A stretch of DNA of 64,000 nucleotides, taken from Escherichia coli (GTDB lineage Bacteria > Pseudomonadota > Gammaproteobacteria > Enterobacterales > Enterobacteriaceae). The stretch is taken from NCBI RefSeq assembly GCF_041886205.1, contig NZ_CP169029.1; one strand, 5' to 3'. The number at the start of each line of letters is the position of its first letter. Within the stretch, counting starts at the first letter, position 1. Positions 33,001-39,000 of this stretch are shown here, one piece after another. A program made the position numbers.

Positions 33001-36000
33001 TGGGTGATCTCCTTCCATGAAAATACGCCGTTATTGTTAAACAGCAGGCTGATTTCTCCGTAAAGGGGAAAATATTTATCGGCTGTATGATTATCAGGTG
33101 TGTCTGTGTTTACTGCTGTGAGTATTTTTTAGTGTATTGTGGGGGAGATGTCAGTGGGAGATATTAAATTTACGTTTATAATTATCTTACTTCTTCTGTG
33201 TGTTTTTTATAAGAGTGCACACGTAATGATATCTGTTGATACCATGTGGTTAAGTGTTTCCCTTCCTGGTCATGCGTAATGATTAAATGCTTTTGTGACA
33301 CCATTCTTCCGGTCTGAATATTTATCCCGTTCTTTTTTATTTGTGCAGTGATACTGTCGGAAGAGAATTCAGTAATGTGAGGTGTCCTGGTCAGGATAAT
33401 ATCTGCTGAGATATTATTAGTTGAGTGTGTTTTACTGAGCAAAAGCTGGCTTTTAATTCCTGTACTGAAACACTGTCGCTCGTCCGGGGTTAACTGAAAC
33501 TGGATGATGATGTAAAATGAAGGCTGTTTTTGTGTTTGTCGAAGAAGTGTTATTTTAATCCATTCTCATCATTGGCTGGCGATTATACAGAAGTATTTGA
33601 AGAAAAAATGGTGCATTTTATCTGTGTCAGCAGGGAAGAAGTATTTTATTGATGTATCAGTATTAAATGGTTTTTGTTATTTATAAAAATGTCATCCTGT
33701 CCATAAAATATTGTACTCAGCATTCAGTGCAGGAACTGTAGTCTTCTTTATTTTATTCTTCTTCAGGAGGGGGGGTGATTCCTGAAGGCGTTATTCCCGG
33801 TGTTCTGTTTATGATTCTTCCCGGCAGGAAACCGGTATCTGCAATACCCGGGATGATGCTTTTTGTTCGTACGTGGTTGTGTAAAATTTGAATAGTGGAT
33901 GTGCTCCGAAGGGAAGGAGGGGACACACAGATTCATTTTGTCTTTCTTCAGCAGCAAAATACACCGTGGTTATTATTTAACCATTAAATCAACAAAAAAT
34001 TTTACCTCATATTGATTTGACTGCTATTTTTGCTATTAATAGCCAGAATTGCAGTGCTTTTATATCTGTGTATAGTGAGGTTACTATGTCATTCGGTCAG
34101 CCTTGTGATGAGTTTCCCCTGAGTTCGCTGCCTCCACTCATTCGTGATGCCGTTATTGAAGCTCAGCAAATTACGCAGGCTCCCCTTGGGCTTGTGGCAG
34201 CGTCTGCCCTGGGCGCTGTTTCACTTGTCTGCCAGAATCTGATTGATGTCTGCAGACTGAATACACTGCGGGGGCCGGTCTCTCTTTTTTTCCTGACGCT
34301 TGCCGAGTCCGGAGAACGAAAAACCGCAGTGGACAAATTATTAATGAAGCCCCTGTACCAGCAGGAGATGCAGTTATATTCCAGATACAAAAGTGAACTG
34401 GCTGTCTGGAAAAACAAGGAAGAGCTTTTAAAGGCTCAGAAAAAAGCATTGTTGTCAAAACTGAATAAAGAACTCCGCAAAGGCGCGGATGAGTCAGAAA
34501 CCCTCAGACAACTGGAAGTACTTCAGAAAAACAGTGCGGAAGAACCTGTGAGGTATAAATTCATTTTTAATGATGCCACGACTGCGGCAATTAAGAATCA
34601 GCTTTGTGGTAAATGGCGTTCAGTGGGTATTATGTCAGATGAAGCCGGTATTATATTTGATGGATATACCCTGTCTGAGTTGCCTTTTATTAACAAAATG
34701 TGGGATGGCTCTGTATTGTCTGTGGACAGAAAGAATGAACCCGAACAGATGATTGAAAATGCCAGAATGACGTTATCCCTCATGGTGCAACCCGGTCTTT
34801 TTGACCGATATATGGAGCGAAAAGGTTCTGTTGCCAGGGACAGTGGTTTTCTTGCCCGTTGTCTTATCAGTAAACCTGCAACCACGCAGGGGAAACGCTT
34901 TATTAACGGAGCTGTGATTCCGGGAGGATCATTAACGGCATTTCATGAACGATTAATGGAACTGGCCAGAGGCAGTATTGAAAAATCCAGTGAGGATGAA
35001 CGGTATTGTCTGCATTTTTCGCCTGAAGCGCAAAAAATATTTATTGAGCACTATAATGTTCTGGAGCAGGATTTATCCCCTTCCGGACCCTTAAGCCCGT
35101 TTCGGGGACATGTTTCAAAAAAAACAGAAAACATTGCAAGAATTGCAGCGTTATTTCAGTATTTCAGCTATGGTGAAGGGAAAATCTCTGCCGATATCAT
35201 GACGTCTGCTGTCGTAATAAGTTCGTGGTACACAGATGAATATAAAAAATTATTTGCGTTACCTGATGAATCTGAACTGCAGCAGAAGGACGCCGAGGAG
35301 CTGTTCGACTGGCTCATTGAGGAGTGCCGCGGAGAATGCCCACCCCGTGTCAGGAAAAATTATATTCTCCAGTGTGGCCCGGGTCGGTTCAGAAACAGGA
35401 AAAAACTGAACGCATTGCTGAACATTCTTGAATCTCAGTTCAGGCTTTCTGTCGTGCCGGAAGGAAAAACCATGTATGTTCTGCTTCCCCAGATAGCCAG
35501 TTTAAAGTTGTCTGATGTCTCTGGTATTTTTACCTCGGGTTATCACTACAATAAGCTGAGAGCGAAGTAACCGGTGAGCAGTTTTTCTCCATTATGCTTC
35601 AGACTTAGATGATTGATTATTATGGGGATTTCATCACCGATATTCAGATGTATGAATATCGGTGATGAACTAAAGCTCAGGAGCTGCGTGGTGGTGATGA
35701 ATCAACAGGCATATAACTGATACCCGCCGGTCAGAAGTTCCAGCCTGCGACTTTCCTGTCTGCGTGCCCGCAGTCCGGCGTTCAGGTGCAGCGTGTGACA
35801 GAACGCACGGAGAGCGAAACGGCAGGCAGACAGGCCGTTCAGTCAGCCCTGGCACCCTGCCCGGATACCAGCTTCCCTGAAACAACTGGCATCAGGTGCG
35901 CTTATCGTCAACCGTTGTGCGGTATGCCAGGAGCACGTACTGATCCATCAGATCCGTCAGTGCTGCGCTCTGCTTCTGACGGTTGATGATCCATTCCTCC

Positions 36001-39000
36001 AGCTCTTTTTCTGATTTCCGTTTCAGATTCTCCGTCCAGTCGTCAAGGCAGTTTCCGGTCATTAAATCAAGCCAGCAAAGCCAGACCAGTTTGAGGCGCA
36101 ACTCCGTGCCACCAAACTGACGGAAGAGGCTGATCAGTTTATTTGCCAGCGAACGCTGCCTCAGACGTTCACATTCAGACAGGAGAATGCCTTCCAGCAT
36201 CGGATGATGAACCAGCAGATGTTCACTGGTGCATAAATTCACTATCAGATCATCATCCAGGGGCGGCGTGGTCCGTTTGTCCGGACCATAAATCAGCCGG
36301 TGCAGACTCTGGGGTACGATGGCAATCTCCGGTTTTTCACCATTGAATGACACCCACCCGGGCGTCAGATTATGGAAGTAGTAGATATTCGGATGACACA
36401 CGCCCCAGGATACGGCGTGCCGGGTGAAGCCGGTCAGCCATTTCTGGTAGCTTTCGTGGAGCAGCTCGTAACGGGTCTGATACTGTGGTTTCATTTTCAT
36501 ATTCCTCACGGGGGATAACAGGCAGCAGAACGCCGCCGGCAGGCCGGAGACTGCGTCTGTTGCAGATGAACGGTTAAGAATTACGGACGGGACTGTGCAA
36601 TACGCGCCTGCAGCCAGGCTTCCACTTCGCTTTTCAGCCATCGGGAGCTGCGGCCCATTTTGATGGGCGCAGGAAAGTCACCATCCTTGATGAGTTTGTA
36701 AAACCACTTATCGGTCAGGCCGGTCAGTTGAGTGATAAATGCCATGTCGACCATCTGGTCATCCATCAGTGAAACTGGGGTGATCATGAGAATGTTCCTC
36801 CGGATGTTGTTAAACCAGCCGGTGTGGTCATGAAAACAACGCACCACCTTCACCGGCATAACAACCGGGGAGAAACGTAAAAAATAATCGGGAATGTGAC
36901 CGCCAGGAGATAAACGGGGAGGTTACGGTGGCTGAGCCGTACCGGTATGCCGGGTGGTTGTTACGAAACGATGCTTCCGCACGCGCGCGCGATAAAGAAG
37001 GGATGATTTTCGTGAGGAAGAGGGGAAAACTGGCGTTCTGATAATTGCAGAGTTATTTACGGGGCGGTTACGATGGGGCAGACCATGTCCGGTGGGCAGG
37101 CGACAGGTATCACCGATGGGATAAGACTGTCTGATTGGTATTATAAATATAAGAAGTTATCAGAGAGTAACGTAAAGGATTTGCCAGAATAACCTAAGAG
37201 AGTAAATCTCTCCGGTAACAGAGCGCTGTGAAGCATTCTGTATCAGAGTGCAAATACATGAACGCTGATGCGTAAAATCAGCAGTGACACGCCAGCTCCC
37301 CCTATGCCCATTCCTGTATAAGACATGAACTGAGCGTATTAATGCTCCTGCCCTGAAACTGAGCCGGTGAGTGAGGGGCTGAGAAATCCCTCTTGACACA
37401 GCTCTAACCAGAAATACTTCCCCGGTTGTTGCGGTGCGTCCGGATCCCCGATAACGGAACACTAAGGCTGTATTGCGGGACACCAGGTAAGTGGCAGCCC
37501 GTAATACGTCAGGAGACGCGGGAAAAGTGATTTCCCATACGCGTTATAAACTTACCCCTGCGGAGATGGAAGCCTTCAACTCTGCGGTCGATCACCGACT
37601 GGCAGAACTGACAATGAACAAGCTTTACGATCGTGTTCCCGCTTCAGTCTGGAAATATGTCATCTGAGCGTTCGGTAATCACAACTGCATCGCGCCAGGT
37701 GTTATCCGCTTTGTGATTCTTATTGGCTCTTCTCAGGTTATTAAAAGCTGAATATGTTCCTGTTGTCGGGAACTAGGATAATACCGGGAACGTTAAGCGG
37801 TATAGCGACAACAAAGAATTCGAAATCAAAAGGGAATGGTGTACGGAGGTGTAGGCGGTAATGGGCCGATTTTCGGGCATTACCGACCTCTGCTGAGGTT
37901 TTCTCGTATTTATCGGGGAGCTGGTGCGTTACTGTCACTGTCTGGCACAGCAAACGCAGAGGTGGCGGGGCGCTCTGCTCCGCTGACTCCGGCTAATCTC
38001 TCCCCTTTTACCTACTGCAACAGTACAAATACACTGACGCCTGAAATGACAGCCAGAATCAGCACAGGCAGTAACGTCAGTAGACAAAGCAGACGATCGG
38101 TATTTCGGTAATAATCGAAGGGATCTGCTGACACGTAGCCCGGGCAACATTCCGTATTATGAGGGATGGCGTTATCACAATCCCTGCACACCGTTTTGCG
38201 TATCACCATCACGTCCTCCTCACAATCTTATCCGTAACCGGCTTTTTGCATTAAAAAAACAACGCTGAAAATTCAGCCGTCAGTCCGGAGACGACAGTCG
38301 GGTTATCTCAGAGTGCCTGAGATATTGCCTGGTTGGAGATCACTTCAGGGACTCTGCGCATTTTTTACGGCGTGGTTAATCCGTATGAACGAAACCATAC
38401 GGAGATTTAACCATGACCTACAAATACAACCCCTTCTGGCAGCAACGTATTCGTGAGACGGTGCGGCACGCACTGGATGTTCATCCCCGTCTGACGGCAT
38501 TGCGGGTTGATCTGCGTCTCCCGGATGTACCGGCAGCAACGGACGCGGCTGTGATATCCCGCTTCATCAATGCCCTGAAAGCCCGCATCGACGCTTACCA
38601 GAAACGTAAGCATCGGGAAGGTAAACGCGTGCATTCCTCGACCCTGCATTACGCCTGGGCCCGGGAGTTCGGGGAGCTTAAAGGCAAAAAACACTATCAC
38701 CTGCTGCTGCTGGTCAACCGGGATACCTGGTGTCGTGCCGGCGATTACCGCGCTCCGGGGTCACTGGCCGGAATGATTAAACAGGCCTGGTGCAGTGCCC
38801 TGGGGGTGGATGCCGGATGTTATGCCACGCTGGTGCATTTTCCGGTCAGGCCGGCGGTGTGGCTGGAACGCGATGATGAAACCGGCTTTCAGCAGGTGCT
38901 GGAACGTGCTGGCTATCTGGCGAAGGAGCATACCAAAGCTCGCGGCACCGGTGAGCGCAACTTTGGCTGCAGTCGTGGCTGAGCCCGACAGACGACTTAT

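Follow-up and report, generated by a model that had tools for sequence, protein, structure and literature searches.

Islands of the CP4 type carry an integrase of the P4 family beside a tRNA or tmRNA gene at one end and are flanked by direct repeats. In CP4-57 of Escherichia coli K-12 the layout is int, yfjH, alpA, yfjI, yfjJ, within the longer run intA-yfjH-alpA-yfjI-yfjJ ... yfjP ... ypjF, and overexpression of AlpA excises the island (PMC10107115). The pheU, pheV and selC islands of Shiga toxin-producing E. coli list related genes, namely YfjI, inovirus Gp2, a Hha-type modulator, YeeP, Ag43 and YeeS-V (PMC6174562). Here we analysed a 64-kb stretch of E. coli DNA (contig NZ_CP169029.1 of assembly GCF_041886205.1; hereafter the window; mean GC 50.6%) and, within it, the segment at 34.1-39.0 kb, which encodes a DUF3987 protein (YfjI), an AlpA-type helix-turn-helix (HTH) protein and a YagK/YfjJ protein. 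The original prediction had read this segment as the remnants of a P4-like satellite inside a composite island.

The yfjI-alpA-yfjJ module and its place in the island

The segment at 34.1-39.0 kb is very probably the integrase-distal core module of a CP4-44/CP4-57-type island and forms one unit with the block at 21.3-32.9 kb. Pfam profile searches confirmed that the three predicted proteins are real and had been named correctly, so that the AlpA, YfjI and YfjJ families that mark a CP4-type island are all present, in an order unlike that of CP4-57. The module holds additional open reading frames (ORFs) that had not been listed: a gene for a 200-amino-acid (200-aa) protein on the minus strand, hha and a 65-aa ORF. 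The shared order runs Ag43 (-), GTPase (-), spacer, YfjI (+), 200-aa gene (-), alpA (-), Hha (+), 65-aa ORF (-), Gp2 (yfjJ; +) and zinc ribbon (+), and was found with identical order and orientation in JML285, ZYB39, T43, G6/7 and 2012EL-2448, the last carrying an 85%-identity allele. Among complete E. coli genomes the 7-kb segment 33000-40000 was covered to at least 80% in 1061 of 5426, with a median of two matching places per genome. In related islands the DUF7828 zinc-ribbon gene at its right end regularly accompanies yfjJ and alpA.

In the relatives examined, the module is joined to a block consisting of the YeeP GTPase, Ag43, DUF932, antirestriction, RadC and CbeA/CbtA genes. The same conserved CP4-type block is present in the window, as judged by Pfam matches on the ORFs at 21331-32894. 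From ~21.3 kb it comprises, all on the minus strand, DUF5983, CbtA, CbeA, RadC, antirestriction, DUF932 and IrmA genes, followed by an 840-aa protein, Ag43, the IsrC/IS102 RNA and a YeeP-type GTPase. The GTPase gene is the first member of this backbone block and adjoins the module.

The state of the genes is that of a maintained module. Compared with the 85%-identity allele, the ratio of non-synonymous to synonymous substitution rates (dN/dS) was 0.07 for the GTPase, 0.16 for yfjJ, 0.19 for alpA and 0.22 for the 200-aa gene, and 0.32, 0.38 and 0.49 for yfjI, the 65-aa ORF and hha, respectively. Every backbone gene occurs in a single copy in the window. Judged by their sequences, all seven genes are intact and under purifying selection, and because dN/dS lies below 1 throughout, the module is not a remnant. 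PADLOC detected no known defence system among the module proteins.

The lack of an adjacent integrase had been reported correctly: tblastn with K-12 IntA, P4 Int and the ZYB39 pheU integrase gave nothing at E<=1 across the 64 kb, and ARAGORN found no tRNA within the window. However, this is normal for a module of this type, since relatives keep the integrase at a distance or have none. In five E. coli relatives and in the gene order of the SRL pathogenicity island (PAI), the module lies beside the GTPase-Ag43-toxin/antitoxin block, with the integrase tens of kb off or absent. The P4-family integrase of ZYB39 shares 55% identity with P4 Int and adjoins tRNA-Phe (pheU) approximately 70 kb from the module, and at the Klebsiella and Yersinia loci that carry a relative of the 200-aa gene, the alpA block is located between the GTPase block and BREX or Dnd cargo. 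By comparison with these islands, a missing integrase beside alpA is no sign of a second, older element. The integrase of the present island would lie past the right edge of the window, which the island overruns, at the far end close to a tRNA gene, unless it has been lost. The cargo that separates the module from the integrase comprises a CdiA-CT/CdiI pair, insertion sequences (IS), F17 fimbriae and cdiA, and we draw the boundary between backbone and cargo at 39.5 kb, with backbone at 21.3-39.5 kb and cargo from there onward.

The ZYB39 pheU island (4447067-4481000) also contains two integrase fragments, a CBASS system, large AAA-domain genes and a reverse-transcriptase gene. These genes lie between the intact integrase and the module and form a defence-rich, visibly accreted cargo.

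Rival origins of the module

P4-like satellites are defined by seven components, of which at most two may be missing, located within 10 genes of each other, and a sharp gap separates them from other mobile elements (PMC8628076). The present module contains one of the seven, Vis/AlpA, where at least five are needed (PMC8628076), and its genes are intact and under purifying selection. When 13 annotated P4 proteins were searched against the window only Vis matched, at alpA (BLASTP E 3.6e-12, tblastn E 1.6e-9). Alpha, epsilon, delta, sid, psu, int, cII, gop and beta of P4 gave nothing better than E 0.01 in the 64 kb, and the best tblastn values were at chance level (Psu 0.064, epsilon 0.11, Sid 0.52, alpha 0.89 and Delta 1.1). 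YfjI, an SF6 helicase, is unrelated to P4 alpha (BLASTP E 2.3), and a blastn search of 50,697 phage records with a 6.1-kb query returned three trivial matches only, with no similarity to a satellite or phage. The match of AlpA to Vis, the historical name of the island family ('cryptic P4-like', CP4) and the P4-like integrase of the ZYB39 island had all favoured the view that a decayed P4-like satellite once sat inside the island and has since lost its integrase. Set against P4 and the P4-like satellites of Moura de Sousa & Rocha 2021, the likeness extends to the Vis/AlpA-type HTH protein and, only in the relative ZYB39, to a P4-type integrase. The helicase belongs to a different superfamily, alpha, epsilon, delta, sid and psu are missing here, and a satellite measures ~11 kb compared with >40 kb for the island. 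We therefore consider a decayed satellite highly improbable. On gene content, membership of the P4-like satellites is refuted, and the historical label CP4, which refers to the integrase and to Vis/AlpA, remains true.

The pairing of alpA with a replication-type helicase and an HUH Rep-like protein within 5 kb of it also recalls a phage-inducible chromosomal island (PICI), in this case one with alpA and a replication module that is nested in the larger island. In Gram-negative PICIs AlpA is the master activator. Such elements are att-bounded units of ~10-15 kb, with the integrase and regulator at one end, a replication module, and packaging or capsid-redirection genes. The present module has no adjacent integrase and no primase domain, and the ORFs examined include no terminase, capsid-redirection or packaging gene. 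It is moreover fixed, in all relatives, to a ~12-kb non-phage backbone of GTPase, Ag43 and toxin/antitoxin genes in an island of >40 kb, which makes a nested PICI scarcely credible.

The suggestion that the island is a composite of at least two older elements held in part. Mosaicism at the level of cassettes is real on comparison of the alleles: the GTPase and 200-aa genes enclose a slot that is occupied by yfjI and the AT-rich spacer here, by a 339-aa gene in PO06021, and by a restriction enzyme and an integrase pseudogene in JNEC-KY174. A second integrative element, on the other hand, is contradicted by the single-copy genes and the lack of an integrase relic. An older event would be the joining of two CP4-type control modules head to head, by fusion or by inversion, fixed long ago and inherited as one block, in which one module gave alpA and the 200-aa gene, the other gave yfjJ and DUF7828, and yfjI was inserted later. 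Other Enterobacterales carry yfjJ, alpA, DUF7828 and the 200-aa gene co-directionally, or alpA, the 200-aa gene and the Gp2 gene co-directionally, and here the pair formed by alpA and the 200-aa gene is oriented away from yfjJ and DUF7828; the variable slot and an allele relic between yfjI and the 200-aa gene point the same way. Yet no second backbone set, integrase relic or att-like repeat is visible in the window, and a simple inversion would account for the orientation just as well. As the arrangement is common to >1000 genomes and to 85%-identity alleles, any fusion is old and not specific to this window. An ancient composite in this full form appears unlikely to us; an old inversion or fusion is possible, and it would predate the spread into >1000 genomes.

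Module proteins, spacers and a possible mechanism

YfjI matched DUF3987 over profile positions 1-363 of 364 (Pfam) and a PHROG family labelled 'DNA helicase' (E 5.5e-82). Its Walker A (AESGERK) and Walker B (MSDEAG) motifs were invariant in 11 homologues. DUF3987 proteins are MCM-like helicases of superfamily 6 (SF6), one member of which has been demonstrated to unwind DNA in the 5'-3' direction (PMC4889955, PMC11724360). A fused or adjacent primase of the AEP or DnaG type is usual for the family (PMC4889955). Neither a primase domain in YfjI nor a primase gene nearby was found in the ORF list and Pfam results. By sequence, YfjI is a predicted DUF3987/SF6 helicase that lacks a primase domain.

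YfjJ residues H94, H96, Y168, K171 and K175 did not vary among 29 sequences, the most divergent of which were at 14% identity. The protein shows both the HUH-nuclease fold and the HUH motif with the catalytic tyrosine (Y..K). By fold and motifs YfjJ is a stand-alone HUH-type Rep/nickase domain with a predicted nicking activity. Enzymes of the HUH superfamily (Rep proteins, relaxases and transposases) cut single-stranded DNA at specific sequences through a covalent 5'-phosphotyrosine intermediate. A leader hairpin of -20.3 kcal/mol (folding z -4.7) pairs with the start region of yfjJ, and its inner stem, as judged by eye, is retained with different bases in other alleles. This hairpin is a candidate translational control element.

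AlpA matched Pfam Phage_AlpA (1.8e-8) and HTH_17 as well as the PHROG family 'excisionase and transcriptional regulator', and is 72-76% identical to the AlpA proteins of Klebsiella and Yersinia islands. Its downstream partner, the 200-aa protein, had no family match in Pfam, PHROG or NCBIfam. A confident structure model predicts a mostly helical protein with no informative structural neighbour. The linkage of its gene to alpA is kept across genera, and the gene exists as two alleles with ~36% protein identity to each other. The Hha protein matched its Pfam profile at positions 14-57 only and scored 76 bits against an NCBIfam cut-off of 90. The 65-aa ORF is annotated by RefSeq in every relative examined, with homologues in E. 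coli only.

Two stretches of the segment had been described as AT-rich and non-coding, and the description proved accurate for the left one. At 33-34 kb the spacer (32895-34085) has a GC content of 37.8%, compared with 50.6% for the window, and no recognisable gene or Rfam RNA was detected in it. At 36.9-38.4 kb, by contrast, GC is 49.3-49.6%, close to the window mean, and the stretch contains hha, the 65-aa ORF and a small disrupted ORF. The full divergent spacer between the GTPase gene and yfjI was covered to at least 80% in 1867 genomes, and RefSeq annotation was absent from it in all 30 genomes sampled. A pseudogene in this spacer found no support in that annotation or in tblastn, which gave no matches with YfjH or with 304-, 337- and 339-aa genes (which occupy the position before the GTPase in Klebsiella, Yersinia and E. 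coli PO06021). The spacer is 88% identical to the divergent allele, compared with 91.6-96% for the flanking genes. This lower conservation, together with the lack of a gene or RNA, fits a regulatory spacer better than a structured RNA or pseudogene, and the spacer is probably a regulatory region silenced in the H-NS/Hha manner.

It had also been proposed that these stretches hide small RNAs or degraded genes. The first part found no support: a permissive Rfam scan (E<=1) of 32800-39200 returned no RNA family, and the gathering-level Rfam matches of the window (C0719, IsrC/IS102 RNA and STnc490) all lie outside the module. Degraded genes fared slightly better, with weak evidence from an allele relic, an ORF with two in-frame stops and the 5'-shortened hha. 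The relic, in the spacer after yfjI, shares 73-75% DNA identity over ~105 nt (35691-35798) with the 3' end of a 190-aa gene in sampled genomes; tblastn gave 12/21 identities (E 0.007) and ended at the last residue of the 190-aa allele. In 818 genomes the best match to the relic-bearing spacer was at 60-80% identity. Read from these alignments, the relic is a trace of cassette replacement. The disrupted ORF is 92% identical over 48 aa (tblastn) to the 62-aa ORF that follows hha in strain PO06021.

Two further hairpins stood out on folding. The one upstream of the GTPase gene (67 nt, -30 kcal/mol, z -6.0) recurs alone in other E. coli genomes and bears the annotation 'stem_loop' in the records of phages P-EibA and P-EibC; it is possibly a terminator or one copy of a small dispersed repeat. 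The palindrome that begins 60 nt after the yfjI stop (-28.1 kcal/mol, z -6.8) has no U-tract next to it on either strand. Its spacer (35571-35891) is at least 99% identical in 1168 genomes and had the same context wherever neighbours were inspected. The palindrome was rejected as a dispersed repeat, with a median of one place per genome, and may serve as a binding site for a protein or as a hairpin site in single-stranded DNA. A repeat scan of the module revealed no convincing iteron array and no att-like repeat, promoter and terminator counts equalled the shuffled expectation, and no origin or nick site emerged.

In the mechanism that we propose, AlpA would act as a Vis-type regulator or directionality factor that turns on integrase expression and excision, as has been shown for its K-12 homologue and P4 Vis. 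The 200-aa operon partner would play an accessory role beside AlpA. Hha/YmoA proteins and H-NS silence AT-rich island DNA. Going by this family knowledge, the Hha paralogue and host H-NS would silence AT-rich island promoters, including those in the 1.2-kb spacer of 38% GC. More speculatively, YfjJ might nick and YfjI unwind the excised circle, leading to transient rolling-circle replication or a single-strand hand-over. That YfjJ, with or without YfjI, constitutes an active split Rep-helicase system that replicates or transfers islands after AlpA-triggered excision is a doubtful proposition. In such a system the origin or nick site would lie in a conserved spacer, the antirestriction-RadC-DUF932 genes would correspond to a plasmid-like 'leading region', and the transfer machinery of a helper would receive the single-stranded DNA. 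Were this to be true, common E. coli pathogenicity and defence islands would be replicative or mobilisable, not inert cryptic prophages.

Several observations weigh against the CP4-type reading and the functions assigned under it. Neither an integrase nor an att site is visible in the window. In CP4-57 alpA, yfjI and yfjJ are co-directional and adjoin int, whereas in the window alpA is oriented opposite to yfjI and yfjJ. AlpA is just 23% identical to K-12 AlpA and its role is assigned by family; the hha allele is short, lacking the N-terminal ~24 aa of the 70-74-aa alleles. Islands without yfjI still carry yfjJ, so joint action of the two is not required. Finally, cured clones are readily isolated after AlpA-induced excision of CP4-57 (PMC10107115), and this ease of curing argues against efficient autonomous replication. 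Across thousands of genomes YfjJ, YfjI and the AlpA-linked 200-aa protein are intact and constrained, and their role is a question for the whole family.

Flanking features and comparison with known islands

Coordinates of the module, its spacers and flanking features in the window
Feature	Position	Strand	Remarks
Wadjet system (JetABCD-like), four genes	11920-18605		between glcA and distal island end
IS110 transposase	19662-20666	-	after Wadjet
840-aa protein	25854-28376	-	between IrmA and Ag43
IS102/IsrC RNA	31629-31865	-	Rfam 74.6 bits; GTPase-Ag43 leader, as in K-12 CP4-44
YeeP/YfjP-type GTPase	31983-32855	-	Pfam MMR_HSR1; 50% identical to K-12 YfjP
AT-rich divergent spacer, GTPase to yfjI	32856-34085		1.2 kb
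Stable hairpin	32962-33028	-	just upstream of GTPase gene
YfjI-family DUF3987 protein, 494 aa	34086-35570	+	Pfam E 1.5e-95
Perfect 17-bp inverted repeat, 6-nt loop	35630-35669		convergent spacer after yfjI
3' relic of alternative 190-aa allele of alpA-linked gene	35705-35767	-	
Conserved, mostly helical 200-aa protein	35892-36494	-	directly downstream of alpA
AlpA/Vis-type HTH protein	36581-36787	-	longest ORF runs to 36859
Hha/YmoA-family protein, 58 aa	37491-37667	+	GTG start; Pfam HHA E 5.8e-21
Disrupted copy of 62-aa ORF	37750-37893	+	two in-frame stops
65-aa Cys-rich ORF	38015-38212	-	C-terminal hydrophobic segment
yfjJ leader hairpin	38371-38415	+	pairs Shine-Dalgarno and AUG
YfjJ/YagK ('inovirus Gp2 family'), 189 aa	38413-38982	+	Pfam YagK_YfjJ_C / REP_ORF2-G2P, E 4.6e-46
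DUF7828 zinc-ribbon protein	39143-39475	+	Pfam DUF7828 5.5e-30
Orphan CdiA-CT and CdiI	39408-40105		CdiI_ImmP, E 7e-36
STnc490 RNA (IS200 5' element)	40159-40282	+	adjoins truncated IS200/IS605 tnpA

The window opens on the left with the glcDEFGBA operon, followed by a Wadjet system with JetD domains and then IS110. The four Wadjet genes encode a DUF3375 protein, a 254-aa protein, an SbcC/MukB-like protein of 1095 aa and a DUF3322+JetD_C protein. Within the backbone block, the 840-aa protein had no Pfam or NCBIfam match and gave faint matches to PADLOC PDC-M09B; it aligns with K-12 yeeR and is longer than YeeR.

To the right of the module are an orphan CdiA-CT/CdiI pair, IS200, IS2 and IS66 copies, F17 fimbriae and a broken cdiA. 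The CdiA-CT/CdiI pair directly follows DUF7828, its toxin piece is marked as N-terminally truncated in RefSeq relatives, and the separate broken cdiA is located at ~58-62 kb. Several IS66 copies bracket the F17 fimbrial operon (~51.1-56.1 kb, minus strand).

K-12 CP4-44 (b1994-b2006) aligns to the window at 21024-32535, ending inside the GTPase gene, and resumes at IS2 (41066-42397). The likeness is piecewise, at 80-98% DNA identity, and extends over yeeP'-isrC-flu-yeeR-yeeS-yeeT-cbeA-cbtA-yeeW; the IS2 copy is 98% identical to that of K-12 CP4-44. K-12 CP4-44 lacks 32536-41065, and with it the whole region studied. In T43, CP4-44 lies between yeeX/tmaR and cobU and contains the 7-kb module at 99.5% identity with the same neighbours, whereas the present island is located beside glcA and the Wadjet system. 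Judging from these alignments, K-12 CP4-44 has lost exactly the region studied.

With CP4-57 of K-12 the island shares AlpA, YfjI (53% identical), YfjJ (37%) and the GTPase, together with the DUF932, antirestriction and RadC families and a CbtA-type toxin/antitoxin pair. The two differ in that yfjI and yfjJ are 2.8 kb apart in the window, with the 200-aa gene, hha and the 65-aa ORF added. A contig scan with YfjI across genera returned only CP4-57-type loci, at ~50% identity. The yfjI-yfjJ pair was adjacent and co-directional in 14 of these 16 loci (in the other two the contig or match ends before yfjJ), and integrase and alpA lay just upstream of the pair in those with enough flank. In many genera the CP4-57-type yfjI-yfjJ spacer carries invariant boxes, TAATT..GAGT and GATAG(G/T)TA(A/T)TATAT, read from an alignment of L002:7396-7550 with 12 other loci. 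These boxes are candidates for a promoter/operator or an origin. Their use as a nick-site motif was dropped, as they are absent from the module type of the window.

More distant are the Pseudomonas tmRNA islands I23, I44 and I55, which have the integrase at one end and, at the other, a conserved block with alpA, an inovirus Gp2-like gene and RadC, with variable defence cargo between the ends, and which are moved by a jumbo phage (bioRxiv 10.1101/2024.08.29.610337; PNAS 2025). Compared by family names, they differ in genus and in most core genes (e.g. YqaJ), and are without the GTPase-Ag43 block.

The SRL PAI of Shigella flexneri 2a YSH6000 shows the same gene order: orf39 (YfjJ), orf40 (Hha/YmoA) and orf41 (Vis/AlpA), followed by the hypotheticals orf42-45, orf46 (YeeP), orf47 (Ag43) and orf48 (YfjQ) (PMC6980539 Table 2). 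This run belongs to the island interior, a long way from orf2 and the start of the numbering (PMC6980539). In contrast to the present module, the table gives only hypotheticals between AlpA and YeeP, with the name YfjI on none of them, and a separate YfjI/YfjJ-like set (orf2, orf5 and orf6) is found where the numbering starts (PMC6980539). For annotation, alpA, yfjI and yfjJ far from an integrase are best taken as the integrase-distal core of a CP4-type island, not as a second element or a P4 satellite. The module of the window is real but ordinary, being the standard, already annotated and already known core of the CP4-44/CP4-57/SRL type, versions of whose gene order are listed for the SRL PAI, CP4-57 and the published pheU/pheV islands.

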